NCBI GenBank assembly: GCA_964423455.1
Contig: CAYRFS010000002.1
Span: 1 to 39,373, forward strand
Reading direction: 5' to 3'
Source of the DNA: an uncultured Acidimicrobiaceae bacterium
GTDB lineage: Bacteria > Actinomycetota > Acidimicrobiia > Acidimicrobiales > SZUA-35
DNA: 39,373 bases
Notes under the pieces: generated by a model
Database searches by the model: none
What the model was told of the DNA's origin: nothing
What the model saw: only the letters and a program-made list of their open reading frames with translations
Made by a program: the position numbers and the translations under genes
Shown: positions 16,703 to 35,786 of the stretch, piece after piece
How positions within the stretch are numbered: position 1 is the stretch's first letter
Layout: every line of letters starts with the position of its first letter

Positions 16703-16774
16703 GCCCCCGTAGCTCAGTGGATAGAGCATCGGTTTCCGGAACCGTGTGCGTAGGTTCGATTCCTATCGGGGGTA
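16703..16774 (+). tRNA. tRNA-Arg (anticodon CCG); CCA is not encoded
   Basis: Manual cloverleaf. Acceptor: GCCCCCG/CGGGGGU. D arm: GCUC-AGUGGAUA-GAGC. Anticodon arm: UCGGU-UUCCGGA-ACCGU, with CCG at positions 34-36. Variable loop: 4 nt. T arm: GUAGG-UUCGAUU-CCUAU. Discriminator: A. Confidence 0.88.
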
Positions 16775-17223
16775 CTACCAGATCCGCCGCCTGATCAGGG
16801 CAAACGCCCTGGTGGCAGGACTGGGGCGGATTGACCGCCGTTGCCCGCTGGGGGCCTGGTTTCGCCCTGGTTCGCGGGGCCACCGCGGGGCAGGATGCCA
16901 GAGGGCTCAACTTCGTCGGTCAGGACCCGCGTAGCTGCGATGGCCGCTGGCGGCCCCTTGCCACACAGGTACGCAGATCCCAAATTGCCGCCCGCAGTCA
17001 GCGGAGCTGCGCCAGAATCGACCGGCGTGACCATCGACCAGCCCCAACCTGACCTCCTCGAGCATCTCGTGGTCGAGTTTGGTGATCACGGCCACCGTGC
17101 TGCCGGCTTCCTCGAAGCGGCATACACACTGTTGAGCAGGACAGAGTTCCACGATGTTCCGAGGCTCCCTGAGACGATTGCGTACTGCCTACGCGAGGCC
17201 ATGAAGACGATCCCGGCCTCCGT

Positions 17224-17620
17224 GGCAACCGGCGAGCCGATGGCCTGCTGATCGCCGTCACGGTCGTGGTTGCCAGCACGTCTGACAACGCTGGTGGGAT
17301 CACCGTGGCTGACAAGGCCCGAAAGCGGTCCAGCCGTTTCTCCAAGCTGTGGTGAGATTCCGGGTTCAAGACCCAGTTCATCCGGCACTGCCGGGAGCAT
17401 CACATCGGAGTTGAGGTCGTCAGACGGATCCATGCCCACCAGTTCGTCGTGCTTCCCAAGCGATGGATCGTGGAACGGACGGACCTGGTCATGGATCATG
17501 AACAACCGTCGCCTCCAAGTCGACTACGAACGCGACCCCATCACCACTGAAGGTTTCATATGGGCCGCCCAGACCCGCATCGCCCTCAGGAAACTAGCGG
17601 AAACAACCGCACGAGCCTGA
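17224..17620 (+). mobile_element. Degraded C-terminal remnant of an IS4/IS5-superfamily DDE transposase (one in-frame stop plus one frameshift)
   Basis: Frame 1 reads ...LLIAVTVVVASTSDNAGGITVADKA...SKLW-stop-DSGFKTQFIRHCREHHIGVEVV...HQFVVLPKRWIVERT. The sequence then continues in frame 2 as WSWIMNNRRLQVDYERDPITTEGFIWAAQTRIALRKLA. The RWxVERT...W...RRL..DYE...F...A...I...R.L tail is typical of this transposase class. The N-terminal half is absent. Confidence 0.55.
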
Positions 17621-17793
17621 CCAGCCGAAACTACCGTGACAGCCTCTTATAAGTCTGCCTGGGCCGACCGCCTGCAACGACGGGCGAACCGAGCCGGGTC
17701 GACGACCTCCTAGCCGTGAGCGATCTCGGGCGGCCATTCCTGCAGTTCAGGTGCGCCATCGAGGCAGAGTCGTCGTGCCCGTTATCGAACAGG

Positions 17794-19419
17794 TTAGCCG
17801 TCGACGAACGCAATGATGAACTGCGGGACACCGTCGATAGTCAGCTCGCCCACGACCCTGTTGTCAGCGGTGATCTCGCATTCGCAAGCGACCACAGCCG
17901 CACGACCATCAACCGTGCCTTCGCCCGATCCGCTGAGCTGGCGACTATCGATATCGATCGACCCGGTGATCGTTCCCTCGTGAATGATCACCGAGCCGCA
18001 GGGCTCCTCGCGGTCGATGACGTAGTCGAGGGCGAACTCGTTGGTCTCCGTGACGGTCACGGTGACGGTGTTGCGACCTCTGAACCCGCACGCTTGTCCG
18101 AGTAGACCGAGGCGACCAGTTCGGGTACCCGCTGCTGATCTGGGATCGAGCGGTAGATCTGTCCGCGGGCGGCCGGAGCGGTCGAGTTCGATCACATCGG
18201 TTGTGTCGGGGGTCCAGCTGTAAGCGCTGGATCCATCGGTAACGACGACGTATCTTTGCGTCCAGGTTCCGGCCCAGATGGTGTCGTGGCTATCGGAGGG
18301 CAGGTCGAGGGTCGGTCCGGGGATGTGCCACCAGCGGTCGCTGTCCGGGTCATAGACAGTGGCGTGCTCCCTTCCCGGTTGCCACCAGATGACTTGGTCG
18401 CCGGTCCAGATCGCGATGCCGTCGGTCCAGGCCGGCGCCAGGCTGCTCGCACTCCAGGTACGGGCGGCGGGGTCGTAGATGCCTCCGGGTGCGAGTGGCT
18501 CGGGAAACGGATCGACCTCACCGCCGGTGATGAGCTGTGGCCAAGATGAGGCGACCAGAACCTCACGACCGGTCCAGATCAGCTGCGGTCCCTGCCAGGT
18601 CGCGATCGGCGCGTCTGGAAGCCGAGACCACGTCTGGTCGGTCAGGCTGAGCGAAGCCCCGACGAAAAACGGCTGTTCGTCGGTCGATCCGATCAGGATC
18701 AGGTTCTCACCGTCGATGACGGCCCCCGTCTCGTAGATGCCAGTCGGCAACGGTGGTGGCGGAAGCTCGTCCCATTCTCGCGTGGCGAGGTCGAACGAAA
18801 CTGCCGTGACCGGCACCTCGGCATCAGGGTCCGTTGTCCACGCGATCAGCCCTGTAGAGGTTGCGGCCGCTGATGGGCATTGACCGTCCAGCAGGTCCGG
18901 AACGTCGAAGGGCTCCGCAGTCCCGGCGCTGATATCGACGACGAGGCCGACCACCTTGACAGAGTAGATGGACGCGTTGCCGATCAGAACGGCATCGCCA
19001 TCGAGCGCAACTGCTGTGCCACAGTACGGAATCTCGCCGGCATGCTCGACCGCGTACCAGCCACCGGTCTCGGCATCAACGACCGAAGCCGCACCGTGCC
19101 CCGACGACGTCTGCCCCCAGACAAGGAGTCGATCGTCGAAACTAGCCAACTGTGGCCCAAGCAATGTCTCCGGTGCCTGGTCCAGGGCATCGGCTCGAAC
19201 CTCGTCCGTCACGGTCGCTGAACTCGAGGTCTCGTTGTCTGAGATCGCGGTCGTGTCCGGAACCGTCATGGACATCGCTGTCCGCTCAGGTTCGGAGGAC
19301 CCGCACCCAACCGCGAGCACGGCCCAGAGACCGACCACTCCGAGCAGCCTTCCTCGACCCGATAACACTGCAACAGAATGCCAGACAGAACATGTGCATA
19401 TCCGGCAGGCCCGGGCCAC
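17794..19419 (-). CDS. Lipoprotein with Kelch-like beta-propeller repeats
   Basis: Lipobox LAVGCGSS after a hydrophobic signal. Repeated W-rich blades follow (LLVWGQT, GGWYAVEH, REWDELPPPP, QTWSRLPDAP, RTWSASSLAP, DRWWHIPGP). The exact start is uncertain. Confidence 0.65.
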   Translation of the reverse strand: MARACRICTCSVWHSVAVLSGRGRLLGVVGLWAVLAVGCGSSEPERTAMSMTVPDTTAISDNETSSSATVTDEVRADALDQAPETLLGPQLASFDDRLLVWGQTSSGHGAASVVDAETGGWYAVEHAGEIPYCGTAVALDGDAVLIGNASIYSVKVVGLVVDISAGTAEPFDVPDLLDGQCPSAAATSTGLIAWTTDPDAEVPVTAVSFDLATREWDELPPPPLPTGIYETGAVIDGENLILIGSTDEQPFFVGASLSLTDQTWSRLPDAPIATWQGPQLIWTGREVLVASSWPQLITGGEVDPFPEPLAPGGIYDPAARTWSASSLAPAWTDGIAIWTGDQVIWWQPGREHATVYDPDSDRWWHIPGPTLDLPSDSHDTIWAGTWTQRYVVVTDGSSAYSWTPDTTDVIELDRSGRPRTDLPLDPRSAAGTRTGRLGLLGQACGFRGRNTVTVTVTETNEFALDYVIDREEPCGSVIIHEGTITGSIDIDSRQLSGSGEGTVDGRAAVVACECEITADNRVVGELTIDGVPQFIIAFVDG

Positions 19420-19620
19420 CCGCTCGGTATCGACGGCGGCGCCCGCACGGTATCGGCAGGCGTCGGAGCCGGGCGTGATCCCGAGTGTGAGAGTCGTGCA
19501 GCAGTGGCCCGTCTCCCGCTGGAGGTGAGCGGCGTTGTCGAGCGGGTTGAACTTCGCCGGGACCGCTGAGCGGCGCCGGTACTTCGGCTGCTCAACACCT
19601 TCGGGTCGAGGCGTGCAGAG

Positions 19621-20109
19621 TCAGTGTTTGCGGGTCACGGTCTCGTCGTGGTCGAGTCGCCAAGTTGTGATGTCGAGGTGTCCTTCGTTGATCTGTACTG
19701 CGGCGGCTCCATGGAGATTGGCTCGTAGGAATCGGTCGAATCGCTGGCCACGCAGATCGAGACCGATCAGCTCGAAGAGGTGTGTAGCGAAGCGCTGATG
19801 GAGTGCTTCGTCGTCGATGTGTTCTACGTGGCCCCAGATCTTGGCGTCGCTCTCGGTCACCTTCGGGTCGATCGTTGCGGTGTGCAATGCAAAGCGGGCG
19901 TCGCGTTCGAGATCGGCGAACTTCGTTGTGTTGGGCATACCGACCAGCCAGAGGTCGTGTTCGAACACACGGGGTTCCATGGGGCTGATGCGGGGGAATC
20001 CGTCGGGCCGTAGGGTTGCGAGGAGACACAGGTTGCCGGTGGCTTGGAATCGCCGTTGGAAAACCTCGGCGATGCGTGGCGCTTGTCGAATGAAGGTTTG
20101 CCAGGTCAC
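19621..20109 (-). CDS. Pyridoxamine 5'-phosphate oxidase family (FMN/F420-binding split-barrel) protein
   Basis: 162 aa. LCLLATLRPDGFPRISPMEP...LWLVGMPNTTKFADLERDARFALH matches the PPOX-fold pattern. The ATG overlaps the upstream stop (ATGA at 20106-20109). Confidence 0.65.
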   Translation of the reverse strand: MTWQTFIRQAPRIAEVFQRRFQATGNLCLLATLRPDGFPRISPMEPRVFEHDLWLVGMPNTTKFADLERDARFALHTATIDPKVTESDAKIWGHVEHIDDEALHQRFATHLFELIGLDLRGQRFDRFLRANLHGAAAVQINEGHLDITTWRLDHDETVTRKH

Positions 20110-20567
20110 GGTGTCGTCTCCTTGGTTGGGCCGTCATCTTCGTCGAGTTGCTTGACTGCCCGTGTCGGTGCGACAAGGCGGTAGCTGAGCTCGATCAGCT
20201 CGGCCAGCTCACCCCAGTCGGGGGTGGGTTCGAGTCGGATACCAAGTACCGACGGTGTCCAGCGGGCGCCCCAGGGCGGCGCGAAATACGGGCTGTTCGG
20301 TTGAGCGCGTTCGAGCACGTCGCCACGATCGGCCCGTACCGTCAGCACACATAGCGGGCCGCCGCTCCCCGCGGCGCTGGCATAGGCCGGTGGCCAGCCG
20401 TTGCTGATCATCACGAGATAGGCGAACCCTTTGGCGCCGGCCCTCCACCGCACACCCGTCCATGCTGTCTCCTCAACGACGCTGGGCCACCGGGAGCAGA
20501 TGCTGCGCACCTGGCCCACCACGGCCAGTGGCACCTCGGCTGCCAGGCCGCGGTCGTTTCTGGTCAT
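20106..20567 (-). CDS. MmcQ/YjbR family protein
   Basis: 153 aa. WPSVVEETAWTGVRWRAGAKGFAYLV ... WGELAELIELSYRLVAP follows the YjbR-family pattern. It overlaps both neighbouring genes by 4 nt. Confidence 0.55.
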   Translation of the reverse strand: MTRNDRGLAAEVPLAVVGQVRSICSRWPSVVEETAWTGVRWRAGAKGFAYLVMISNGWPPAYASAAGSGGPLCVLTVRADRGDVLERAQPNSPYFAPPWGARWTPSVLGIRLEPTPDWGELAELIELSYRLVAPTRAVKQLDEDDGPTKETTP

Positions 20568-21070
20568 GGCCGTCCTGTCGCGGTGAGGGATCGCTCATAA
20601 CGCCGCACCGTGATGCTGAGCGGACCTTGCCCGCAGGAGGCGTGGTAGTCGTAGTCCCCGGTGTCGTGCCAGCCTTCGCGCTGGTAGAACCGGCGAGCGC
20701 GGTCGTTACCGGTCGCAACCGCCAGCCACGCCACCGGAAATCCGTTCTCCTGTACGAGCGTCTCGCCGTGCCGCAACAGGTACGACGCCACTCCGGAGCC
20801 TCTAGCGGAACGCTCCACGTAGACCTCTTCGATCTCGTCGGCGGCCACGGTGACGAAACCGACGACACAGTCGCCAAAGCACGCCACCCACGACCGCGCT
20901 AGTCGAGCGGTCACCTCGTCGGCCCAACAGCCGGACAGCCGGGCCTGCTCAAGCTCTGCCGGAACGTGACCGGCATGGCCGTCGCTCCAGCCGAGCCGCC
21001 AGATCGCTGCCATCGCCTCCACGTCGGGCTCACCAGCTCGCCGGATCCGCACTACAGCCGTGTCTCTCAT
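20564..21070 (-). CDS. GNAT family N-acetyltransferase
   Basis: VVGFVTVAADEIEEVYVERSARGSGVASYLLRHGE (acetyl-CoA motif A, R/Q-x-x-G-x-G/A) and NDRARRFYQREGW. Confidence 0.85.
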   Translation of the reverse strand: MRDTAVVRIRRAGEPDVEAMAAIWRLGWSDGHAGHVPAELEQARLSGCWADEVTARLARSWVACFGDCVVGFVTVAADEIEEVYVERSARGSGVASYLLRHGETLVQENGFPVAWLAVATGNDRARRFYQREGWHDTGDYDYHASCGQGPLSITVRRYERSLTATGRP

Positions 21071-21134
21071 GTACCGGCCTCCTCGGCCACGACCCCTGGG
21101 TCACTGTCGTTCACTCATACGGCAGTTACAATGT

Positions 21135-21734
21135 ATGACCATGCGTGACACTGGTCAAGAGTTCTTCACTGGTTACAGCGACGCCGGCATCCACGTCGCC
21201 ATCGGACTCGTGAACGATGTCGCCCTCAGCAAGCCGACCGGCACCGAAGCACTCGACGCGATCGCCCAGATCATCGCCTTCGACCCCCCGACCCACGACC
21301 GACTCCGGCCCCGACACATACCCGGGTTTGTCGCCCTCGCCCACACCGTCCATCAGATCGTCACCTGGATCGACGCCGGAGACCTCGACCCGGCGGCAGC
21401 ACAGCTCAACGAGCTACTGGCCACGCACCCCGCCAATCCCCACCTGTCCAAGGAGAACGGCAGGTGGCAACTCCACCACCACCCCGCCACCGTCGACCTC
21501 GTTCCGATGTACACCTCAATCTGCGCCGAGGTCCTGGCCCGACTCATCGGCACCGGCCACGCCCAACGCCTCGGCCGGTGTGCCGACGCCACCTGCGGAC
21601 GGGCCTACCTCGACCAATCCAAGAACAACAGCCGCCGCTACTGCTCCACAACCTGCCAGAACCGCGCAAAGACCGCAGCCTTCCGCGCCCGCCAACGATC
21701 CACGCACCCAAACCACACTGCATCTCAAGGCTGA
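21135..21734 (+). CDS. CGNR zinc-finger (ABATE-type) putative regulator
   Basis: C-terminal CADATCGRAYLDQSKNNSRRYCSTTCQNRAKTAAFRARQR is the CGNR zinc-finger signature. It is divergent from the GNAT operon. The start is taken at the MTMRDTG ATG. Confidence 0.8.
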   Translation: MTMRDTGQEFFTGYSDAGIHVAIGLVNDVALSKPTGTEALDAIAQIIAFDPPTHDRLRPRHIPGFVALAHTVHQIVTWIDAGDLDPAAAQLNELLATHPANPHLSKENGRWQLHHHPATVDLVPMYTSICAEVLARLIGTGHAQRLGRCADATCGRAYLDQSKNNSRRYCSTTCQNRAKTAAFRARQRSTHPNHTASQG

Positions 21735-22112
21735 CGAGATGAGGCATCCTGAGCCTGGATAATCGGAGTGTCCGAGCCGTCGGAGCGGTCCTGTGGTGGT
21801 ACACGAGCCGCACCGGCCCAGTCGGTGTTTGGGCGGGGGACTCGATCGTGCCACGCCGCTATTGCAGGGTGATTGTTGTTCCGTTAGGAGCATCCGGGGC
21901 ATCCGAGGGTCCGACGAGCCCACTCGCAAAGCGAGTCAGGGCCAACGCGTGCCGCGCGTATGCCGCCCCGATACTCGTGTCCACGACCGTCATCAAACCT
22001 CTCTGCAGCCGCCGACCGCCCCTCCGGCTGACAGCGAGTGAGAAATTCTCCCAAACAGAGCGAGCGCCTCCTGCGAACGAGCTCGATCGCTCGGGCTCCG
22101 GTCGTCGACACG

Positions 22113-23858
22113 TCACGAGCTTGGACGAGCCAGGCGCCGGGGCCCCGCAAGTTGGAGCCCGCGGTCGAGGTAGTGGTCCATGTGGGTCCGGGCGGCGAGC
22201 GCGACCAGGTCTCTGGCCGCTCGTTGGGCCCGGTCCCCGTCGCCGGCCCGGTCGGCGATGGTGGCCTCGGTGTCGTAGATGGCGGCGATGATCGCGACGT
22301 AGCCGTCGGCGTCGCGGGTGGAGCGGCCACGGGCGGCGTCGATCCAGTCGAGCGCGGCGTCGAGGTCCTGCCGACCGGTGTGCGCGATGGCGAGGTTACG
22401 GGCGGTCATGCCCTCCCAGCAGGGATCCGCCAGGTGGCAGCTCGTGGCGAAGTTCTGCTCCAGCTCGTGGAGGTTCACATCGCTGCCTCGCCCGAGGCGG
22501 ATCTCGGCCATGATGCTGAGCGGCCATGGACGGAACGCCAGCCAGCGCAGCTGGTCGACGTGTCGCATGCACTCATCGAGCCAGATCAGGGCGGTGGCGT
22601 CGTCGCCGGTTCGGGCGAGGAGCCAGCCCCCGAGCGCCAGCGCCCATGCTTGGCGTCTCGTATTGCCGGCGGAGCGCGCCAGGTCCAGCGCGTGGTGGTA
22701 CTCCGCCAGCGCGGCGTCCGTCCGACCCCAGTCACCGAGGTTGAACGCGTTCACCGCATGGAGCCCGGCGAGGAGATCGGGATCGTCGTCGGCGAGCTCG
22801 ATCCCCCGGACGAGATGGTCGGCTGCGGTCGGTCGCCGACCGACGAGGGCGTCGACGCAGCCGAGCTCGCGTCGTGCGCCTGCGGCGATACGCCGGTCGC
22901 CGTGAGCTTCCGCCAGTTCTGCGGCGCGCGCCAGCAGGACAGCGCCCTCGTCGTCACGCCCCCGTACCGAGTGCACGAGAGCCGACCCGAGCTCGAACAG
23001 GCATCGGGCGTGGAGGCGTCGGTCCCCAAGCGACTCGCTGCTGCCGGCGGCGCGCCGCAGACAGTCGAGACCGGCATCGGTCGCTCCGGCCGCTAGGGCC
23101 GCCAGGCCCGAGTCGCAGAGCGACACAGCCACAGCGTGCGCAGAGACCCCCAGGGGCGCACCGGCGACAGTGGCCCGGGCTGCGCTGCGCAACGCGCTGG
23201 AATGATCGACGCCGAGCTCAGCTCGCAGTCTCGCCTCGACATCGGCCACGTGGGCGGCGGCCGCCTCCTGGCGCCCGTTCGCGATCAGGCATTTGACCAG
23301 CAGGACGTGGGCGCTCTCGTCGTAGGGACTACGCCGTGCCAGCAGTTCGGCGTCGGCCAGCGCCTGCTCGTTCGCCCCGGTAGCGAGCGCGTCCAGAATC
23401 TCCCGTCGGATCACTTCGTCGATCATCGACGCAACCCGTTGGCGTTGGACGAAGAGCCACGTCTCGAACTCTGCGCTGCATCTCGGCTCCACCGATGCGA
23501 GCAGCTCACCGGCCTCGTTGGAGTCGAACCTTCCCGCCATCAATTCCACGAGATCCACCGTGGTGGCGGCCGGTAGATCGACGGCGATCGGGTCGCCCAG
23601 GAACAGCGTCTTCGACCCGAAGGCCTTGCGGAGCTCGGCCAGGCACCACCTCAGAGCGGCCAGCGGATCTGACGCATCGGCGAACAGCTCGGACGCCAGA
23701 TCCCGACGGAGAACTGGCCGCTCGTCGAGGATCAAGCGGGCCAGCAACGCCCAGGTTTGAAAGCCGCGGACCCGGTGTTCCGTGCCTTCGGCGTCGATCA
23801 ATGCGGGCCGCCCGATAAGCCGGACGATCGACACGGCACCTTCCCCCGCCATCAGCAC
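22113..23858 (-). CDS. SARP/AfsR-family transcriptional regulator (winged helix + BTAD + TPR-like C-terminus)
   Basis: N-terminal VRLIGRPALIDAEGTEHRVRGFQTWALLARLIL...LRWCLAELRK. The BTAD region reads RREILDALATGANEQALADAELLARRSPYDESAHVLLVKCLIANGRQEAAAAHVADVEARLRAELGVDHS. The C-terminus is a long helical repeat. Confidence 0.8.
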   Translation of the reverse strand: MLMAGEGAVSIVRLIGRPALIDAEGTEHRVRGFQTWALLARLILDERPVLRRDLASELFADASDPLAALRWCLAELRKAFGSKTLFLGDPIAVDLPAATTVDLVELMAGRFDSNEAGELLASVEPRCSAEFETWLFVQRQRVASMIDEVIRREILDALATGANEQALADAELLARRSPYDESAHVLLVKCLIANGRQEAAAAHVADVEARLRAELGVDHSSALRSAARATVAGAPLGVSAHAVAVSLCDSGLAALAAGATDAGLDCLRRAAGSSESLGDRRLHARCLFELGSALVHSVRGRDDEGAVLLARAAELAEAHGDRRIAAGARRELGCVDALVGRRPTAADHLVRGIELADDDPDLLAGLHAVNAFNLGDWGRTDAALAEYHHALDLARSAGNTRRQAWALALGGWLLARTGDDATALIWLDECMRHVDQLRWLAFRPWPLSIMAEIRLGRGSDVNLHELEQNFATSCHLADPCWEGMTARNLAIAHTGRQDLDAALDWIDAARGRSTRDADGYVAIIAAIYDTEATIADRAGDGDRAQRAARDLVALAARTHMDHYLDRGLQLAGPRRLARPSS

Positions 23859-23972
23859 AGATCCTAGTCACTCGGCGTTTGCGCAACCGTTTGACAGGAA
23901 CATCGGTGGGCAAACGTTCGGTCCAATGCCCCTGTGTCACCGTGCTCACCTGTCGCCGACGGAGGGGTCGCC

Positions 23973-25247
23973 ATGAACACCGAACGAGTACGAGACCAGG
24001 GACGGTGGCGGCGTTGTCGAGGCTTCGTCTCGCTGTTGCTGGGAAGCTTCCTGGGCGCATCGATCGCGCCGGCGCCGACCGCCGCCGCGGCCCAGCCTGT
24101 CAGCGAATCTGGGTTCGGTGGCGCTGAGGTCGTGCGCTGGAACGAGTTGGCGATGGATGTGCTCACCCCGTCGGGGCGACCGGTCACCACCCAGCACTTC
24201 GTCGTCACGGCCATGCACGTCGCCATGTACGACGCAGTGGTTGCCGTCGAGGGCGGTTTCGAACCCTTCGGCACCGACATCGCAGCCCCCGACGGCGCCT
24301 CGGCGGCCGTGGCGGCGGCCACGGCCGCCCATCGCGTGCTCGTGGGATTCCTTCCGGACAACGCCGGCACCTTCGACGCAGCCCTCGCCGTCACGCTGGC
24401 CGAGTCTCCGGATGGACGAGCCGAGCAGGACGGCTTCGCAGTAGGTGAAGCGGCGGGCTGGGGCACGCTGGCGGCCCGGCTGGGCGACGGGTCCCAGTCC
24501 GGGCCGTCCCCGTCTGTACCCCCGCCGGGAACCGGCGTGTGGCAGCCGACGCCACCGGCCGTCTCCGGTCTCAATCCGTGGATCGCCGAGGCGAAGCCGT
24601 ACACCCTCCACCGCAACGACCAGTTCCGCCCCCGGCCCCCCTCGCTCGACTCCAGACGCTACGTGCGGGACCTGGAGGAAGTGCGCCGGCTCGGCGGGGC
24701 GACCTCGACGGCACGCACGGCCGAGCAGACCGAGATCGCCCGGTTCTGGGCCGATCAGCCGATCGCCCAGAATCAACGCACGCTCCGCCACCACGCCGAG
24801 AAGCTGGGCTGGGATCTCGCCGGGACAGCGCGACTCATGGCCGCCATCCTCACCTCCGAGGCCGACGCCTTCATCGCCTGCTGGGACGCCAAGTTCCACT
24901 ACTGGCTCTGGCGGCCGTGGCAATCGGTACCCGCCCTCGAGCCGGGCTGGGCGCCGTTGCTGGCCACCCCGAACCATCCCGAGTTCCCCTCGGCCCACGG
25001 CTGCCTCACCGGAGCGCTGGCCTACAGCCTCCCCCGGCTCATGGGCACCGACCAGATCGACCTCGAGATCGATGCCACCACCACGAACACGACCCGCCAC
25101 TACGACACAGCCGAGCAGTTGATCACCGAAGTGGGCGACGCCCGGATCTGGGGCGGGCTGCACTACCGCTTCTCCGTCGACGCCGGGGTCAGGATCGCCG
25201 AACGCGTCGTACGCCAGAACCTCGGCCACCACTTCCGCCCCGACTGA
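23973..25247 (+). CDS. Secreted PAP2-superfamily protein (vanadium haloperoxidase / acid phosphatase-like)
   Basis: Signal MNTERVRDQGRWRRCRGFVSLLLGSFLGASIAPAPTAAAA. All three PAP2 motifs are present: KFHYWLWRP, PEFPSAHG, ARIWGGLHYRFSVD. Confidence 0.8.
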   Translation: MNTERVRDQGRWRRCRGFVSLLLGSFLGASIAPAPTAAAAQPVSESGFGGAEVVRWNELAMDVLTPSGRPVTTQHFVVTAMHVAMYDAVVAVEGGFEPFGTDIAAPDGASAAVAAATAAHRVLVGFLPDNAGTFDAALAVTLAESPDGRAEQDGFAVGEAAGWGTLAARLGDGSQSGPSPSVPPPGTGVWQPTPPAVSGLNPWIAEAKPYTLHRNDQFRPRPPSLDSRRYVRDLEEVRRLGGATSTARTAEQTEIARFWADQPIAQNQRTLRHHAEKLGWDLAGTARLMAAILTSEADAFIACWDAKFHYWLWRPWQSVPALEPGWAPLLATPNHPEFPSAHGCLTGALAYSLPRLMGTDQIDLEIDATTTNTTRHYDTAEQLITEVGDARIWGGLHYRFSVDAGVRIAERVVRQNLGHHFRPD

Positions 25248-25309
25248 ACGCCGCCCGACAGACCACCGGCACCCCGCCGTCCACCCCATTCACGAAACGG
25301 AGAACCGCC

Positions 25310-26164
25310 ATGACCACCTTCGATCCGGTCCGCTACAAGACCGACACCCGCCAACAGTGGGAGGACGCCGCCGAGGCGTGGCACCGTTGGGGCCCCACGC
25401 TCGAGACCTGGCTGGGCGAAGCCACTGAGCGGATGCTCGACGCGGCCGGAGTATCGCCGGGATCCCGCGTCCTCGACATCGCGGCGGGCGCAGGAGGCCA
25501 GTCCCTGGCCGCGGCCCGACGGGTCACCGCCTCGGGCTCTGTCGTGGCCACCGACATCTCGCCCACCATCCTCACCTACGCCGCGAAGTCCGCCACCGAT
25601 GCCGGCCTGAGCAACGTGGTGACCCGCGAGCTCGACGGGGAAGCGCTCGACGGACTGCCCGCCGCCCAGTTCGACGCAGCGATCTGCCGTCTCGGCCTGA
25701 TCTACTTCCCCGACCGTCAGCGAGCCCTGACCGGCATCCGCAGCGCGCTCCGACCCGGAGGCCGATTCTCCGCGGTCGTCTACACGACAGCGGATCGCAA
25801 TGCCTTCTTCTCCTTGCCGGTCTCGACCATCCGCCGACTCGCGGAGCTGGCTCCTCCTGGTCCCGACCAGCCCGGGCCGTTCAGCCTCGGCGATCCCGCC
25901 GTCGTCGAACGAGCGCTCACCGGGGCCGGGTTCCACACCGTCACCATCGAAACGGTCGCCGCTCCGCTGCGGCTTCCGTCCGCCGCCGACTGTGTCCGGT
26001 TCGAACGCGAGTCGTTCGGCGCGTTGCACCAGATGCTCACCAACGTCCCCGCCGACCGGCGGCCCGCCGTATGGCAGGAGATCGAGACCCAGCTCGCCGA
26101 GTTCGACGGCGCCGACGGCTTCGTCGGCCCCTGCGAGCTCCACATCGCCAGCGCCACCCGATGA
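25310..26164 (+). CDS. Class I SAM-dependent methyltransferase
   Basis: The ATG at 25310 has GGAG upstream. Motif I is VLDIAAGAGGQS, followed by the post-I acidic residue in VVATDIS. Confidence 0.85.
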   Translation: MTTFDPVRYKTDTRQQWEDAAEAWHRWGPTLETWLGEATERMLDAAGVSPGSRVLDIAAGAGGQSLAAARRVTASGSVVATDISPTILTYAAKSATDAGLSNVVTRELDGEALDGLPAAQFDAAICRLGLIYFPDRQRALTGIRSALRPGGRFSAVVYTTADRNAFFSLPVSTIRRLAELAPPGPDQPGPFSLGDPAVVERALTGAGFHTVTIETVAAPLRLPSAADCVRFERESFGALHQMLTNVPADRRPAVWQEIETQLAEFDGADGFVGPCELHIASATR

Positions 26165-26342
26165 GGAGGACAGAGTCCGTGAACCGCCGACGCGCGGCGG
26201 ACCCTGACTGCCATGAATGAATCCCCATCCGGTCCGGTCCCCACCCACAGGTGGTGGACCCGTCAGGACTCACCCACTTACACAGACTTCACGACAGACC
26301 CGGCTCGTCCGATGCGGTCGAGGTGGTCGGCGGTCCAGGCCT

Positions 26343-26762
26343 TCATCGGTCCTGATTCTGGTGGTGCTCGGTGGGGCGGTCGGCGGTAGTGGCGGGGTCG
26401 GAGTTGGCGGTGGCCCAGCTGGCCAGGAACGCGAGTTGGTCGGTTGCGGTGGTGTCGGGTCTGGGGGTGTAGGCGATGATCACGAGTCCGTCGCCGGGGA
26501 GTTCGAGCGCCTGGCCGGAGAGTTCGATGTCGCCGACGATCGGGTTGTGGACGGTCTTGTCCGCGCTGCGATGTGCCCGCACGTCGTGGCGTGCCCAGCG
26601 AATGGAGAACTCCTCGCTGCGGGTGGTGAGCTCGCCGACGAGGTCGGACAGGGAACGACTGGCGGGGCTGCGCCCCACCTCGCGGCGTAGGTTGGCCACG
26701 ACATCGTCGGCCACGGCTCCCCAGTCGATGAAGAACCCGGCCGAGCGTTCGTCGAGGAACAC
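26343..26762 (-). pseudogene. MmyB-like regulator remnant: C-terminal ligand-binding half only, with no HTH domain
   Basis: RNLARYVFLDERSAGFFIDWGAVADDVVANLRREVGR...ELTTRSEEFSIRWARHDVRAHRSADKTVHNPIVGDIELSGQALELP matches the C-terminal half of MmyB-like domains. The frame is open upstream only to 26942, where it abuts the next gene, and it has no N-terminal XRE-type HTH. Confidence 0.55.
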
Positions 26763-26923
26763 ATAGCGGGCGAGATTTCGTCGGCCCGATCTACCTTGCC
26801 GCCGGACGGTGGCGATTCGATGCTCGGGCCACCGGAGCAGCAGGCTGCTTCGAAGTTGAAATTCCGTTCCCCCAGTCGTGAGGCGGATGCTGTCCTGCCG
26901 CCAGCCACCGTGATGGCTTGGCT

Positions 26924-27295
26924 CTATCCGGGGCCGCAGATGTTATCGAAGAGCGACTGCATTCGATCATATGATCGTTGCGCAGAGGTGCCGCTCGTGT
27001 CGAGCCCGCTAACGTCGGTCACCGGCCAGTATCGCAGACGGTAGTCGTTCGAATAGCCAGCCGGAATCAGGGGTGCAAGCTCTATGACCTTCTCAGCTAC
27101 TTGCTCCGTGGCTACCGGCGAGAGCTGCTCGCCGTTCGCTTCGGCGTAGATCTTGTCGATTCCGCGGGTGAGCTCGCAGAAACGTGGGCTGTCATCGAGG
27201 GCGACAGGGACCTCTCCGCTGCTGCTGCAACCAAGGCAGGCGAAGGCCATGAAGAAGAATAGGCGGCTGATCATCCCACTTCGATCGTAGTTCAA
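26924..27295 (-). CDS. Small hypothetical lipoprotein
   Basis: Signal with lipobox MISRLFFFMAFACLGCSSS. GC content is locally low. I recognised no family. Confidence 0.5.
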   Translation of the reverse strand: MNYDRSGMISRLFFFMAFACLGCSSSGEVPVALDDSPRFCELTRGIDKIYAEANGEQLSPVATEQVAEKVIELAPLIPAGYSNDYRLRYWPVTDVSGLDTSGTSAQRSYDRMQSLFDNICGPG

Positions 27296-27336
27296 CCTCC
27301 AGGATCACCGATTCTTTTTCGGGTGACCGGGCCGGC

Positions 27337-28065
27337 TCACGGCCGGTCGGTGAGATGGCGGCGGAGGAACACGACGATGCGTTCCCGGGCCAGCGCGGTT
27401 GCTGCTCGGTCGTAGCAGGTGCCGGAGAGCCGCCCGAGGACACGGAGTCCAACGGTGAGGTCTTCGGGATCGTGGTCGTTCATGAAGCCGTGACCGGCGC
27501 CGGGGTAGACCGTGATGTCGTGGTCGACACCGAGCCGGTCGAGCGAAGCGTCGAGGCGGCGGGCGGCGCGAGCGCCCAAGGGGGTCCGGTCGTCGGCGCC
27601 GTAGCTGCCGACGATGGGACAGGTCTCGGCGAGCGCGGTATCGGGGTCGCTGGGGCAGCCGCCGTAGTTCACCGATGCGACCGCGAACCCGTGACCCGGT
27701 GCGAGCGCCAGCGCGTAGCCGCCGCCCATGCAGAAGCCGATGACCCCCACCTCTCCGCTGCAGCCAGGGTCGGCGAGAAGCCATCGGCGGGCGCATTCGA
27801 TGTCGTCGAAGGTGCGTCCGGCCGCACGCCCGAGGTCGCGCATGATCGTCCACAGGCAACGGACACGGCCGCCCCACCAGTACAGATCGGGGGCGATGGC
27901 GAGGAACCCTTCGCTGGCCAGCCAGTCTGCTTGGCGGCGGAGGTCGACGCTCATACCGGTGTAGTCATGCACCACCACCATCGCCGGCCACGGGCCCGGA
28001 GTCGAGGGGCGGGCCATGTAGGCCTCCATCAATCCCCGCCCCCGGGGCAACGAGATCACCGTCAT
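27337..28065 (-). CDS. Dienelactone hydrolase family protein
   Basis: AMVVVHDYTGM, the nucleophile elbow GFCMGG (Cys nucleophile), and the C-terminal YPGAGHGF histidine. Confidence 0.85.
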   Translation of the reverse strand: MTVISLPRGRGLMEAYMARPSTPGPWPAMVVVHDYTGMSVDLRRQADWLASEGFLAIAPDLYWWGGRVRCLWTIMRDLGRAAGRTFDDIECARRWLLADPGCSGEVGVIGFCMGGGYALALAPGHGFAVASVNYGGCPSDPDTALAETCPIVGSYGADDRTPLGARAARRLDASLDRLGVDHDITVYPGAGHGFMNDHDPEDLTVGLRVLGRLSGTCYDRAATALARERIVVFLRRHLTDRP

Positions 28066-28341
28066 CGGACCTGGAGCTCCTCCTGTGGGTTCGGGTCGCG
28101 TGCACCGTGGCAGGAAGGGCGTTCACTCGTCGGCATCATCGACCAACCTAGTCTCCCGGCCGCTCCGCCGACGCTCGGGGCCGGGCCGCATCGGGCGGGC
28201 TGCCGAGCCGGCCGGCTGCCAGGCGCACCGCAAGTGCCGCGCCACGCGGGACACCTCGGATCTCAAGGACGTTCGACACTCCCGGCTACCGGCTCGAGAC
28301 CTTCATGATGGAGACGCAGAGCAACCGAGGAAGTGATCGCC

Positions 28342-29187
28342 ATGACAGCTGTTGCCTCGTCCCACAGGGGCCCGCCCCCCGCTGCAGCGCCCGCCACCAT
28401 CAAGCGGGGGCGCCTGCTCCGCTGGTACCTCGCCGGCGCCCTGGTGAGCTTCGCCATCCCCCTGATGGGCGCCGACGTTCTGGAGCTCCACCACGACCTG
28501 TACCTGCTCGTGTACTTCACGGTCGCCGGCACGTTCCTGACGTCGTTCGCGGCACACGCCGGCATCGACTGGAAGAGATGGCTCGCCCCGCGACGCTGGT
28601 GGAGCGTCGGCGCCGGTGTCCTCGTTGCCTTCGCCATCGTGAGCAAGGTGCTCCGCGAGGCGGCGATGCCCCATCCTGAGGGCAGCTTCTTCTGGTTCGA
28701 GTTGGCATGGCGTGGCCTCGTGTACGGCTTCGTCGACGCCTTGCTGCTGTTCGTGTTCCCCGCTGCGGTGGCCCACGCCCTCCTCGGCGATCGTGACCGC
28801 CGCCGCCGTGTTCGGTTCGCCGCCCTGTCCCTTGTGCTCTCGTTCGGCATCACCGCCGCCTATCACCTGGGCTACCCGCAGTTCCGGAGCACCGATCTCG
28901 TCCAGCCCGAGATCGGTGCGGTTGTGGCATGGGTGCCCACAGCACTGACCGGCAACCCGGTGGGGGCGATCGTCGTGCACGACGCCTACCACGTGGCTGC
29001 CAACGTGCACCGGTATCACAGCGAGATCTACCTGCCGCCCGATCTCGACGGCTACGCCGAGCGCGGCAGCGGCGCCGCCGGGATCGCCGCCGCCGGTGCG
29101 TGGGTCGTGCTCGGCGGAGGCGCCGTCTATCTCGCTCGGCGGCGCCTCTTCCCCGGCACCGACATCCCTGGGCCTGCTGTGGTGTGA
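28342..29187 (+). CDS. Polytopic membrane protein, possibly a CPBP (CAAX/Abi) family intramembrane protease
   Basis: The ATG at 28342 has GAGGAAG 8 nt upstream. It has multiple TM helices. The motifs are spaced like CPBP motifs 1-3: FELAWRGLVYG (cf. EExxxR), ITAAYHLGY (FxxxH) and HDAYHVAANV (HxxxN). Motif 1 has only one Glu. Confidence 0.5.
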   Translation: MTAVASSHRGPPPAAAPATIKRGRLLRWYLAGALVSFAIPLMGADVLELHHDLYLLVYFTVAGTFLTSFAAHAGIDWKRWLAPRRWWSVGAGVLVAFAIVSKVLREAAMPHPEGSFFWFELAWRGLVYGFVDALLLFVFPAAVAHALLGDRDRRRRVRFAALSLVLSFGITAAYHLGYPQFRSTDLVQPEIGAVVAWVPTALTGNPVGAIVVHDAYHVAANVHRYHSEIYLPPDLDGYAERGSGAAGIAAAGAWVVLGGGAVYLARRRLFPGTDIPGPAVV

Positions 29188-29305
29188 CGGACATCCGCCA
29201 TGGGGGGCTCGGCCCCGGGAAGGACGCCGTTCGGTAGGGAAGCCCGCCCCGGAAATCAACCGTACGGTGGATGTTCGGTGGCCGCATCGGCCTGATCCTG
29301 TGGCC

Positions 29306-30139
29306 ATGCCACGCATCGACGAGCTCGACGTACCCTTCATCGACACGCTCGGGTCGGCCTATCACGCCGACTTCCACCGCTTCCACGCCGAAGCGCTACA
29401 GCAATCGTGGGTCGCGTCGACCCCGCTCGGCCCGCTGGTTCTGAGCGACCGGCACGTGCGGGCGTTGCTCCGGGACCATCGGCTCGACACGGTCACGATG
29501 CAGTGGACCCTGGAGGCGCAGGGCGTGGGGGATGGGCCGTTCTGGCAGCGAACGACCCGGACCCTGCTCGCTCTCGACGGCGACGATCACCTGCGGCTGC
29601 GGCGGCTGGCCATGCCGTTCTTCACGCCCGAGGCAGTCGATCGCCTCCGGCCCTTCATGCGCCGCACGATGACCACGCTTCTCGACGCAGTGTTCGGTGA
29701 CCGCTGCGACGCGGTGGCGGCGTTGGCCCGCCCCTACGCCTCCGCCGTGCTCTGCGAGCTCGTGGGCGCGCCCGACCGCGACTCGGAGCAGATCGCCGCC
29801 TGGGCAGCCGACGTGCTGTCGGTGTTCGAGTTCCAGTTGGAGAAGGATCGCCGGCGGATCGAAGACGCCCAGGCCGGGATCGACGCCTACGTGCGGGCAC
29901 TCCTGCACCACCGGGGTAGCACCCCAGGCGATGACCTCGTGACCGCGCTCATCGCCCATAGCCAGCAGCACGGCACCTTGAGCGAGGACGAGGTGGCCAT
30001 GATCATCACCGACGTCCTGGTGGGCGGCATCGACACAACCCGGCATCAGCTCGCCCTGGCTCTCTAGGCGATCACGGAGCATCCGGTCGCATGGGAGTTG
30101 CTCAGCGCCGATCCGTCGAATCCCGGTGGGCGGGCATGA
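29306..30139 (+). pseudogene. Cytochrome P450 remnant (N-terminal two thirds, with an in-frame TAG and a 3' truncation)
   Basis: P450-like sequence extends up to the I-helix (DVLVGGIDTTRHQLALAL). TAG 30065-30067 follows, and the same frame continues as AITEHPVAWELLSADPS (typical of the post-I-helix region) before ending at 30139. The ExxR and Cys-heme loop regions are absent. Confidence 0.65.
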
Positions 30140-30147
30140 TTCGCTGA

Positions 30148-30967
30148 ATGAGGGAGGTACAGCTGCGAACGGTGACGGTCGTCGTCACCCGACGTCGAGA
30201 GCTCGACCGGCCTCTGGGCATCCGACCCCGTGGCCGCGGCGAAGGCCGTCCAGCGCATGCACGAATCGGTCGACCACTGGGTGTGGCGACACGACGGCAT
30301 CCGCCGCGTCGAGCAGGACGGTGGCGACTCGACGGTGTCGATCTTTCCAACCGCCGCCTCTGCGGTTCAGGCTGCGCTGGCGATCCAACTCGAGCTGACG
30401 ACATCACAGGCGCCCGACAACCCACCGATCGTGGCCCGGGTTGCCGTGCACGCCGGCACCGCCGAGGTGGGAACGGCGGGAAGCTGGGAGGATGCGACGG
30501 TCGTCCGCTGCCAGCGGCTGAATGAGCTGGGCCGGGGAGGCGATGTGCTCCTGTCTGCCTCGGCAGCGGCGCTGCTCCTCGACGAGGTTCCTGCGGGGGC
30601 CTCCGTCGTCGATCTCGGGGAGCACTGGCTTCGCGACCTCGCCCGGCACGAACGGGTCTGGCGGCTCATCTATCCCGGCTCGAGGTCTTCGGGCCCCCTG
30701 CGAACGACGTCCCGGGGCCAGCGCACCAACCTTCGGCCGATGCCGACACAACTCGTGGGCCGTGACCGGGAGCTGGCCGACCTGGCGGGGCTGTTGGGCA
30801 CCACGAGGGCTCTCACGCTCACCGGCCCGGGCAGGGTCGGTAAGACCCGGCTGGCGCACGCGCTGGCCAGCTCGTGCTTCGAACGCTCGGCCCGGCCGAC
30901 GTGGTGGGTTGATCTTGCCGCGCTGGCCGAGCCCGGCACCGTGGCGGCGGAGGTGGCGGCCAGCTGA
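30148..30967 (+). pseudogene. Remnant of a class III adenylate/guanylate cyclase + AAA ATPase (LuxR-type large regulator): frameshifted and C-terminally truncated
   Basis: Frame 1 gives VQLRTVTVVVT. A +1 shift then gives DVESSTGLWASDPVAAAKAVQRMHESV...GDSTVSIFPTAASAVQAALAIQ (cyclase domain). Next come LVGRDRELADL and the Walker A motif GPGRVGKT, with a stop about 45 aa later. The rest of the ATPase, the TPR and the LuxR HTH are missing. Confidence 0.6.
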
Positions 30968-31036
30968 CTGTCACGCCCCGCCGGCCGCGGCGAGCAGCGC
31001 CGCCGCTCCCACCGGGCCCAGCGCCCACGCGCCCGG

Positions 31037-31759
31037 CTAGGTTCGGCCCTGTGACCGCTTGACCCTACGTCGCAGGAGAGTGCCGGCGACGGCCACCACT
31101 ACCACGAGCACGGCGGCCAGGCCCAGGCCGCGGGATGAGCCCATCTGACTCTCGCCCGTGGCGACGAACGACGGCGCTGAGCTGTCGAGGAACTGCGACT
31201 TGGCCCGGTCGGCGGCGTCCTCGGGCGCGATGGCAGCGGGACGGCCACGATGCAAGCCTTCAGCGGGAAGCTCGGCGCTCGGTGGCCTTGGGGGGCCAAG
31301 AGCCTCGGCGAGGACATCTGTAGGCGGAGCATTCTCGATGGGGAATATCCCGCACATACCGGATACCAGGAAGCCATCTGGGTTCTTCCACGCAACCACG
31401 AACTGCTTACCGTCGGGGACGCCGATGGAGCAGTTGCCGCTGTAGGGCGGACCTCCCGGCGCGTGAACCACCAACGTTTGGCCTGCTTCGCCTACATAGA
31501 CCGTATCGACGGTGAACAGCAGGGCGACACCGGGTATGGGCGGGCGACTGGCCCCTTCCCTGGTCACGTCGCTCTCGCCGCTGTCGGCAACGGAGCCCAC
31601 AAAGACCACATCTGAGGTATCCGAACCCGTCCCGTGCTGTTCCAGGACCTCGCGGGGAGAGTCTGCGGCGCACGTGCAGGCGAGAGCCGGCCGAGCATCC
31701 ATCGTCACCACGCCAACAAGCACTATCAGTGCACCCACTGCTCGCTCCAGGCGGTCCAC
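31037..31759 (-). CDS. Secreted, C-terminally membrane-anchored protein with a TIMP/NTR-like Cys-Thr-Cys mature N-terminus
   Basis: The GTG at 31759 gives the signal VDRLERAVGALIVLVGVVTMDARPALA, followed by CTCAADSPREVLE...SDVVFVGSV. Two more cysteines follow (YSGNCSIGVPDGKQFVVAW...VSGMCGIFP). The C-terminus is FVATGE... plus TM helix LGLAAVLVVVVAVAGTLL plus RRRVKR. Confidence 0.55.
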   Translation of the reverse strand: MDRLERAVGALIVLVGVVTMDARPALACTCAADSPREVLEQHGTGSDTSDVVFVGSVADSGESDVTREGASRPPIPGVALLFTVDTVYVGEAGQTLVVHAPGGPPYSGNCSIGVPDGKQFVVAWKNPDGFLVSGMCGIFPIENAPPTDVLAEALGPPRPPSAELPAEGLHRGRPAAIAPEDAADRAKSQFLDSSAPSFVATGESQMGSSRGLGLAAVLVVVVAVAGTLLRRRVKRSQGRT

Positions 31760-31929
31760 ACGAAGAGGATGCCACGGAACCGGCAGGGCGGGGGCGCCCG
31801 AGACGGTCCTGCGCCGGGGACGGGCGACCGGGGAAACCGGCGACGCGCCGAACCAGCAGCTCAACAACGCCCGTGGCCCGCCGACGGGACCGGGTACCGC
31901 CGCCGACCCGAACGAAGGGGTGACCTCTG

Positions 31930-34287: not shown

Positions 34288-34968
34288 TCATCGGGCTGGC
34301 GGGATGGCGATCACCACGATGTTGGAGGCGTAGTGTCCGACCTCGGGATCGAAGGCGCCGCCGCAGGTGATGAGCACCAGGCGCTCGGGTGAGCTGGGGT
34401 TGAACAGGTCATCGATCGGCAGGTCGGCCTTGAGGTGGACGGCCACCCGGTCGACCTCGTACACGAGCTGGCGGCCGTCGCCGGAGGTCACGGTCGCCCT
34501 GTCCCCCGGCTCCAGTGAGGCCAGGTGGCGGAACACGCCATCCACCCCGTCGTAGGCCACGTGCCCGGCGAGCACGATCGAACCGGCTCCCGCCCCGGGG
34601 CGGGCACCGAACCGGTACCAGCCGACCTCGTGGGTGCCCGGTATCTGCAGGCCGCCGGCGGCGTCGAGGCCCACCGGCACCACCGGGGCACCGTCGACCC
34701 GCAGCGAGGGGATGGCCAACCCGACCGGGTCCGCCGTCTCGGGCGCCGCACCCGTTCCGGAGCCGGCGGGTGGGAGGGCCCGCACCGCTGACAGGTCGAA
34801 TGCTCCGCCCGCCCCCGGCTCGGGCGGCGGGGCCGTCACGCCGGCCGGCGGGGAATGGGCCAGTTCCATCAGCGGGAGGGGGTGGCGGCGGCTGGAGGCG
34901 GCGTCGTAGATCACGCCGGCCAGGGTCGCCGCCACCACCACGACCACCGCACGGATGGGGGCGGTCAA
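34288..34968 (-). CDS. Class F sortase
   Basis: N-terminal TM anchor, then GWYRFGARPGAGAGSIVLAGHV (catalytic His) and LVLITCGG (catalytic Cys, TLxTC-like). The ATG overlaps the upstream stop (ATGA). Confidence 0.85.
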   Translation of the reverse strand: MTAPIRAVVVVVAATLAGVIYDAASSRRHPLPLMELAHSPPAGVTAPPPEPGAGGAFDLSAVRALPPAGSGTGAAPETADPVGLAIPSLRVDGAPVVPVGLDAAGGLQIPGTHEVGWYRFGARPGAGAGSIVLAGHVAYDGVDGVFRHLASLEPGDRATVTSGDGRQLVYEVDRVAVHLKADLPIDDLFNPSSPERLVLITCGGAFDPEVGHYASNIVVIAIPPAR

Positions 34969-35786
34969 CGCCGCCGGCGGGCGGGACGGGCGCCGAGCAG
35001 GCCCGCGGCGACGACCCCCAGGGGAACCGCCAGCGCCCAGGCCGGGAGGCCACTGCCATCCCCGCCCGCCCCGGCCGAGTTGCCGGCGTCGACACCCATG
35101 GGGCGGGGCCCGAGACCGGGGATCGATTCGGTGGCCACCGCCATCGTGTTCCGCTCGATCGACCCCAGCCCGTAGACGATCACCGCTGCCCCCGCCTCCA
35201 GCGTCACCTCGGCCGGGCCCAGGATGGCAGGCCCGGCGCTGCCGGCCGGCACCAGCGAGGCGCTGACCGTGCCGGCTGGCAGGTCGGCCTGCGCCTCGCC
35301 GCCGTTGGCCAGGTTCTCGAACACGGCCTCGCCCGCCGCCACCACGTCGACCGGCGGGGCCGCCGCCAGGTGGCGCACGATCAGCCGGCTCTGCCCCGCC
35401 GGCAGAGGGCCCACGTCGTTGGAGAAGCTGGCCAGGCCCACCGAGCCGTCGATCTTGAGGTGGAGCACCACGGTCACGTTCTCCCCCGCCGGCAGCTCGA
35501 CATCGCCCGCCGCCAGCAGCACCTCACCGGTACCGGCCCGGGTGACCGTCACCGTCTCCAGCCGCGCCCCCAGAGCCGACAGGTCGTACGTGCCCCGGAA
35601 CCCGAGGCCGCGGACGGCGGGACGTCCGCCGATGGCCACATCCAACGAGGTGTCGGGCACCCCCTGGATCAGGTGGACCCGGGTGGGGGCGGCCCCGGCC
35701 GGAGACGGCCCTCCCACCAGGGGCGCCACCCCCACGAGCATCAGGCCCGCCACCGCCACGATCACCGCACGCATCCCACCGCTCAC
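34965..35786 (-). CDS. DUF4397-like secreted protein with a C-terminal TM segment and an Arg tail
   Basis: A signal peptide, then VHLIQGVPDTSLDVAIGG...VTVTRAGTGEVLLAAGDVELPAGENVTVVLH, with a second similar repeat. The C-terminus is GNSAGAGGDGSGLPAWALAVPLGVVAAGLLGARPARRRR. An alternative ATG lies at 35774. Confidence 0.7.
   Translation of the reverse strand: MSGGMRAVIVAVAGLMLVGVAPLVGGPSPAGAAPTRVHLIQGVPDTSLDVAIGGRPAVRGLGFRGTYDLSALGARLETVTVTRAGTGEVLLAAGDVELPAGENVTVVLHLKIDGSVGLASFSNDVGPLPAGQSRLIVRHLAAAPPVDVVAAGEAVFENLANGGEAQADLPAGTVSASLVPAGSAGPAILGPAEVTLEAGAAVIVYGLGSIERNTMAVATESIPGLGPRPMGVDAGNSAGAGGDGSGLPAWALAVPLGVVAAGLLGARPARRRR

Follow-up and report, generated by a model that had tools for sequence, protein, structure and literature searches.

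A predicted bacterial surface protein with a TIMP-like N-terminal domain in an uncultured Acidimicrobiaceae bacterium

In TIMP-1, an animal tissue inhibitor of metalloproteinases, two disulfides (Cys1-Cys70 and Cys3-Cys99) tie the N-terminus to the beta-barrel. The features by which TIMPs inhibit are the free alpha-amino group of Cys1, the side chain of residue 2 and a disulfide-linked connector (PMC9890683), and TIMPs are treated as a metazoan family (PMC4860685). Here we describe a gene located at 31037-31759 on the minus strand of a 39,373-nucleotide stretch of DNA (the window; positions 1 to 39,373 of contig CAYRFS010000002.1) from an uncultured Acidimicrobiaceae bacterium, whose product carries a domain with well-supported, remote homology to the TIMP N-terminal domain (N-domain). 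The host genome assembly spans 7.3 Mb in 1062 contigs and is approximately 90% complete. An ArgRS encoded on the same contig shares 75% identity with proteins from metagenome-assembled genomes of Acidimicrobiales, which places the host in that order. Judged from its sequence, what is new about this protein is that it is a bacterial, single-domain TIMP homologue with two predicted disulfides and a C-terminal anchor.

Metalloprotease inhibitors of bacterial origin include the serralysin/alkaline-protease inhibitors (MEROPS I38) and Streptomyces SMPI (I36). Another, potempin A of Tannerella, is a surface-anchored metzincin inhibitor with an oligonucleotide/oligosaccharide-binding (OB) fold, and it acts through a bilobal mechanism without N-terminal zinc chelation (PMC9890683). 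Like the protein described here, these inhibitors are small exported bacterial proteins, but they are unrelated to it in sequence and are mostly encoded beside the protease they target. The literature that we searched yielded a single bacterial precedent for TIMP likeness, namely Tim of Listeria monocytogenes (LMRG_00714), a lipoprotein with the lipobox LTAC that is paired with the metzincin Mtz (PMC8235301). The gene encoding Tim always adjoins that of its metzincin, which cuts Tim approximately 50 residues in; only a Phyre2 fold prediction revealed its likeness to TIMPs, which is 'not in sequence', and the authors of that study state that they knew of no previous report of TIMP-like proteins in bacteria (PMC8235301). 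The Acidimicrobiaceae protein and Tim are alike in being bacterial, envelope-anchored and predicted to adopt a TIMP-like fold. Unlike Tim, however, the former carries a type I signal and is anchored at its C-terminus, its TIMP homology extends to the sequence level, and no protease gene adjoins its own.

The gene is an intact open reading frame (ORF) of 240 codons plus stop. The features of its product, all on the minus strand, were delineated as follows. Residues 1-27 (31679-31759) form a signal peptide judged from the sequence, with Arg3 and Arg6 in the n-region, the hydrophobic core AVGALIVLVGVV and a c-region running to A-L-A; this signal-like segment ends in ARPALA and is directly followed by Cys-Thr-Cys. 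Residues 28-30 (31670-31678), the predicted mature N-terminus, correspond to Cys1-Thr/Ser2-Cys3 of TIMPs on the basis of family conservation and alignment to TIMPs. The TIMP/NTR-like OB-fold domain covers residues 28-146 (31322-31678), as supported by AlphaFold2, Foldseek and the family profile, and contains the only other cysteines of the protein, C110 (GNCSIG) and C136 (GMCGIF), at mature positions 83 and 109. It gives way to a Pro/Ala-rich, poorly conserved linker or stalk modelled at low confidence (residues 142-197, 19% Pro; 31169-31336), then to FVATGES (residues 198-204; 31148-31168), a possible non-canonical sortase motif belonging to a pattern shared within the genome. The protein ends in a transmembrane (TM) helix (residues 211-229; modelled helix 209-237) and a basic cytoplasmic tail, RRRVKRSQGRT (residues 230-240), which together occupy 31040-31129 and imply a topology with the N-terminus outside and the C-terminus inside. 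The original prediction had placed signal cleavage after ARPALA, exposing Cys-Thr-Cys, and this was borne out at the level of prediction: an A-x-A motif immediately before the cysteine is conserved family-wide, and cleavage between A-L-A and Cys28 is predicted from the -3/-1 rule together with that conservation.

Searched alone, the protein had no match in Pfam, NCBIfam or PDB sequence searches. We nevertheless recovered 42 relatives with phmmer from 1.8 billion cluster representatives. Across 28 relatives A27, C28, C30, C110 and C136 are invariant, and the pattern of cysteines and signal is therefore not a product of chance. An indexed search with the domain alignment added 125 further relatives, every one annotated 'hypothetical protein', originating from Actinomycetota, Paenibacillus and one Woeseiaceae metagenome-assembled genome. 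Family statistics were compiled from 155 sequences in which a signal peptide is followed by CxC. The residue at -1 is Ala in 98% and that at -3 is Ala in 80% or Val in 12%; Cys1 and Cys3 are present in 100%, with Ser (83%) or Thr (9%) between them. Many relatives have CSCAP as their mature start, which is also the start of TIMP-4. Among the most strongly conserved features is, in addition, the S-C-G connector around the third cysteine. Exactly four cysteines are found in 125/155 relatives and a terminal TM helix in 123/155. The third and fourth cysteines fall at median mature positions 70 and 98, compared with 70 and 99 in TIMP-1; in the Acidimicrobiaceae protein they are displaced to 83 and 109 by a subfamily-specific insertion, ESDVTREGASRPPIPG, situated between the first two strands of the OB domain.

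A protein of this kind had been expected to be unusual in a bacterium. That expectation has to be qualified: family matches occur in 33/401 sampled genomes of the phylum (outside the host's own genome, none from the same order), which is not rare, while our literature search found no published study of the bacterial family. Nor is the family invisible to databases, because some members match the TIMP model PF00965. It is large, bacterial, without a name, and unstudied rather than rare in genomes.

Could the two N-terminal cysteines serve another purpose, such as a thiol site for metal binding or redox chemistry, or could Cys28 be lipidated? CxC motifs are able to bind metals, L-A-C bears a superficial likeness to the last residues of a lipobox, and VKOR and Thioredoxin_4 went undetected in the host genome. 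However, the four cysteines with TIMP-like spacing fit two disulfides, and two genes for DSBA-family oxidoreductases are present in the host genome (contigs C7 and C888). A lipoprotein was rejected as well: A-L-A-C fails as a lipobox, positions -7, -5 and -4 being occupied by Asp, Arg and Pro, respectively, relatives carry H, R, Y, W or Q at -2, and a lipid anchor would be redundant given the C-terminal TM anchor. We consider either variant of this explanation very unlikely.

The relationship to TIMPs emerged from family profiles. A profile of 28 relatives searched against PDB sequences matched the N-domains of TIMP-2 and TIMP-3 at approximately 1e-5, and a profile of 95 relatives matched TIMP-2 with E = 1.5e-10, TIMP-3 with 7e-7 and TIMP-1 with 2e-5; no family except TIMPs reached significance in the latter search of PDB. 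Every TIMP alignment begins at mature TIMP residue 1 and spans approximately 105 residues, and the third and fourth cysteines of the family fall on Cys72 and Cys101 of TIMP-2, to which Cys1 and Cys3 are bonded. The earlier suggestion that two further cysteines could provide two disulfides agrees with this alignment, in which C110 and C136 take those positions; the bonds themselves are predicted. PF00965 was also matched individually by 7/28 relatives. Conversely, the NTR model PF01759 was matched neither by the protein nor by any of the 28 relatives, and the arrangement typical of NTR modules (six cysteines, embedded in a multidomain protein) is not seen in the protein, which has four cysteines and an N-terminal domain. 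NTR modules, as found in netrins, sFRPs, PCOLCE, complement C345C and agrin NtA, belong to the same OB-type fold class, but they lie inside larger proteins without a free N-terminal cysteine, are mostly non-inhibitors and gave no match at the sequence level.

Compared with the N-domain of animal TIMP-1 to TIMP-4 (PF00965; MEROPS I35), the protein is alike in cleavage before Cys1, the C-[ST]-C start, the S-x-C-G connector and an OB barrel of approximately 120 residues, in which the partners of Cys1 and Cys3 lie near positions 70 and 99 in TIMPs. On the other hand, TIMPs possess a C-terminal domain with three disulfides as well as a Cys13-Cys124 bond, both of which it is without, while the bacterial host, the added Pro-rich stalk and TM anchor and the insertion that moves the cysteines to 83 and 109 are its own.

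Structure prediction agreed with the profiles. AlphaFold2 models were built from the 95-sequence alignment for the full-length protein and for the domain only, with mean predicted local distance difference test (pLDDT) scores of 74 and 70, respectively, and both consist of a beta-barrel followed by a helix (in the full-length model, strands 51-65, 75-89, 95-101, 119-125 and 138-140; helix 147-154). In the full-length model, scores fell below 50 at residues 169-178 and 192-209. An OB/NTR barrel had been anticipated in the original prediction, with a Foldseek comparison as the way to examine it, and the comparison returned just such folds: with the full-length model, the top 22 PDB matches were all TIMP-1, TIMP-2, TIMP-3, agrin NtA or the PCOLCE NTR module (best E = 2e-5, target-normalised TM-score (TMt) up to 0.65), and with the domain-only model TIMP-2 led the list (query-normalised TM-score (TMq) 0.58-0.62). 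Complement C345C was also among the fold matches. With moderate confidence we take the modelled domain to be a five-stranded OB barrel of the TIMP/NTR type. Since the family profile matches TIMPs and Foldseek retrieves TIMP, NtA and NTR structures, homology to the TIMP N-domain is well supported, and we are highly confident of it and of the overall architecture. That the likeness arose by convergence or chance, in a family with an unrelated OB-fold, is barely credible. Pairwise identity to TIMPs is only 14-18% and OB folds recur often, but against this stand the TIMP-2 match of E = 1.5e-10 over approximately 105 residues, which sets out from residue 1 and pairs all four cysteines, the independent PF00965 matches in relatives and the concordant fold ranking.

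By its anatomy the protein is exported by the Sec pathway, and signal peptidase I is predicted to cut it after A-L-A, so that Cys28 becomes the first mature residue and its alpha-amino group is free. The predicted fold of residues 28-146 is a TIMP-type OB barrel, to which the predicted disulfides Cys1-Cys83 and Cys3-Cys109 (mature numbering) would staple the N-terminal segment. A Pro-rich stalk of approximately 55 residues, the TM helix and the basic tail hold this domain outside a Gram-positive-type membrane, with later transfer to the wall by a sortase being possible. If the protein works as TIMPs do, the N-terminal ridge would enter the cleft that holds the active site of a zinc protease of the metzincin type, where the amine and carbonyl of Cys1 would chelate the catalytic zinc and Thr2 would point into S1'. 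Such inhibition would protect the cell surface against secreted metalloproteases, whether foreign or made by the cell itself. We favor a TIMP-like mechanism because what the family conserves most is what TIMPs inhibit with, namely cleavage before Cys1, Ser or Thr at position 2 (92%), Cys3 and the connector. Possible targets also exist in the host genome, where at least four ORFs carry the full HExxHxxGxxH motif (contigs C10, C19, C74 and C751); matches to the matrixin family PF00413 in that genome were all sub-threshold. Based on this comparative analysis, our confidence that the protein functions as a TIMP-like metalloprotease inhibitor is evenly divided.

A number of results weigh against such a function. 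The protein alone had no PF00965 match at E <= 10, a scan of the host genome with PF00965 was also negative, and a profile of the close subfamily searched against PDB matched no TIMP, so that the link to TIMPs is transitive. It appears solid nonetheless at the sequence level: a broad-family profile built without the protein and its two closest relatives scores it at 83.7 bits, and hhalign aligned the subfamily with the broad family, from which the protein had been left out, at 99.5% probability. Other adverse points concern structure and chemistry. The third N-domain disulfide and the whole TIMP C-domain are absent (there are four cysteines, and a linker and TM helix follow the barrel), pLDDT is 53-66 around the N-terminal segment, and Pfam VKOR and Thioredoxin_4, both common in Actinomycetota, were not detected in the approximately 90%-complete host genome. 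The genomic setting gives no support either, with the gene lying among truncated genes in a decayed island of lower GC content at third codon positions (GC3). No metalloprotease gene is found within the window. In 20 relatives, housekeeping genes with no relation to the family make up the neighborhood (glmS-X-acpS and ftsH-folE-X, for example), and a Pfam scan of 77 neighbor proteins revealed no recurrent peptidase family. A metzincin-motif gene lies within three genes in only 2/20 relatives, one (L039) having a Reprolysin_4 gene three genes off and the other (L050) a gene for a Big_2 protein of 1214 aa in which a metzincin motif occurs. Similarly, the family does not co-occur with Reprolysin_4, the sole metzincin family tested (2/33 versus 15/368 genomes).

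The same data would suit a true homologue of the TIMP/NTR fold that does not inhibit and instead serves at the surface to bind or scaffold, for instance, a partner protein, matrix or polymers of the cell wall, its disulfides only stabilizing the domain. Agrin NtA and many NTR modules are binding modules, and agrin NtA, PCOLCE NTR and complement C345C are among the fold matches. The lack of a conserved protease partner and of co-occurrence with Reprolysin_4 points the same way, as do the location of several relatives within cell-envelope precursor clusters, for example glmS-acpS, and the fusion of the domain in seven relatives to a C-terminal domain of approximately 330 residues. Likewise, Listeria Tim affects the cell wall and is not a demonstrated inhibitor (PMC8235301). 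However, non-inhibitory NTR modules have no need of a free Cys1, whereas cleavage before Cys1 and Ser/Thr2 are the top conserved features of this family, and sequence matches go to TIMPs alone and not to NTR, NtA or C345C. We regard a non-inhibitory role as possible, if somewhat unlikely, and a TIMP-like inhibitor as the reading to be preferred.

Several relatives have architectures or surroundings of their own. In two of them, the TIMP-like gene is located between glmS and acpS in one (L042:4114-6921) and after folE and a 646-aa HExxH gene in the other (L053:3367-6573); the latter HExxH gene, which precedes folE, we take to be FtsH, a guess from the conserved actinobacterial ftsH-folE cluster. 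The seven actinobacterial fusions (L011, L014, L015, L022, L025, L026 and L033) combine a signal peptide and the CSC domain with the approximately 330-residue C-terminal domain and have no TM anchor. This fused domain is conserved, starts with PLPxPDG...VGGSFG and was Pfam-negative in the sole member scanned, the 462-aa G078 protein (L011/L044). In addition, giant proteins of 1900-2800 aa (P0015, P0016, P0023, P0024, P0034, P0036 and P0042) match residues 107-151 or so of the query (GNCS...C) in 5-11 stretches each, which suggests a repeated cysteine-containing module akin to the second half of the domain. The closest distinct relative, with 61% identity, is located on a metagenome contig from ENA (L002:1-692) that also has a DDE transposase, and its frame is shifted between PPIPG and VALLF.

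We also considered the integrity of the gene itself. Two candidate starts, GTG 31759 and GTG 31738, leave the start codon uncertain. Only the former retains Arg6, which is near-invariant within the close subfamily; the latter has GGAG 6 nt upstream, and a database protein with 98% identity is annotated as starting there. The choice is immaterial to the cleavage site, as both starts yield an identical predicted site. GC content at the three codon positions (GC1/GC2/GC3 = 0.72/0.54/0.73) agrees with the assigned frame. A scan for promoter and terminator consensus sequences found nothing, which is uninformative at a genome GC content of approximately 70%. The 1.2 kb made up of the gene and its two flanks recurs in an independent assembly at 98.7% DNA identity, with a 98% identical protein, which rules out an assembly artefact. 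Within the gene the two copies differ by 6 synonymous and 4 non-synonymous changes; the synonymous excess per site is compatible with purifying selection, with no relaxed constraint seen, although the numbers are small.

The gene stands at the end of a stretch (16703-31900) in which GC3 is 0.72-0.85, as against mostly 0.88-0.98 in core genes outside it. The stretch begins at a tRNA-Arg(CCG) gene (16703-16775), finishes exactly at the TIMP-like gene and looks like a decayed island: a P450 gene cut short at 323 aa (29096-30067) lies within it, as does a fragment of a cyclase/AAA_16 gene (30230-30967). The TIMP-like gene has a GC3 of 0.73, compared with 0.97 in the adjacent EAL-HDOD gene and 0.8-0.98 in most core genes of the window. 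One might conclude that it is decaying, non-functional cargo of a degraded island, given this composition, the truncated P450 and cyclase/AAA_16 neighbors and the frameshift at PPIPG, near a transposase, in the 61%-identical relative. Yet the frame is open, all family-invariant residues are retained, the independent assembly holds the same gene and flanks, and synonymous changes dominate per site. The open frame, the retained residues and the independent copy led us to discard a pseudogene, and decay more generally is very improbable.

The C-terminus had been described as having a sorting-signal-like architecture. The TM helix, the basic tail and a resident sortase fit that description, but the motif is neither LPXTG nor LAXTG. 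Put differently, the protein shares with sortase substrates the tripartite end of short motif, hydrophobic helix and basic tail, whereas its motif, FVATGES, resembles only the GV[PD][TA]GNS of two sortase-coupled proteins. Of the three sortase genes in the host genome, one lies 2.5 kb from the TIMP-like gene. This sortase is class F-like (34288-34968, minus strand, LITCGG; Pfam Sortase 1.3e-17) and is translationally coupled to a DUF4397 protein (34965-35786, minus strand; Pfam DUF4397 3.6e-20), the pair occupying 34288-35786; the tail of the DUF4397 protein consists of GVDAGNS, a TM helix and RRRR. A second coupled pair on contig C180 (94-3293, minus strand) comprises a surface protein with the tail GVPTGNS, a TM helix and RRQR and a sortase that likewise has LITCGG. 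Neither coupled surface protein has LPXTG; both share GV[PD][TA]GNS approximately 12-14 residues before the TM helix and Arg-rich tail, which makes it a candidate recognition motif of class F-like sortases. The third sortase gene adjoins one for a 1015-aa protein with a canonical class E-type LANTG end (C134:8525-12795, minus strand).

Among the 177 C-terminally anchored ORFs of the genome, none has LPxTG and a single one, on C134, has LAxTG. The pattern V-x-[TA]-G-x-S precedes the C-terminal anchor in four of them: the two sortase-coupled proteins, the TIMP-like protein and one probable false positive. This shared motif is suggestive and no more, because we drew up the pattern from three sequences that we had already seen. 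PSFVATG is kept in the 61%-identical relative (P0003) and not in the remaining subfamily. A few relatives bear canonical LPETG, LPESG, LPATG or LPVTG, and the domain is accordingly likely to be sortase-anchored to the wall in some lineages. As for the protein described here, the window sortase could process it, but from the motif comparison we hold such processing to be unlikely.

The boldest reading of these data, which we consider quite unlikely in its entirety, is that an ancient and large bacterial family of functional TIMP-type inhibitors exists and is in this case displayed covalently on the wall by a class F sortase via V-x-T/A-G-x-S. If true, TIMPs would not be an animal invention, and this protein would be the first bacterial TIMP and provide the first recognition motif for class F sortases. 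A widespread bacterial family with a zinc-chelating N-terminus would revise views on the origin of the TIMP inhibitor class and would offer small, single-domain scaffolds with two disulfides for the engineering of metalloprotease inhibitors. It would also indicate that the cell surface in Actinomycetota and in other phyla has a further layer, so far unrecognized, that controls proteases or serves in defence.

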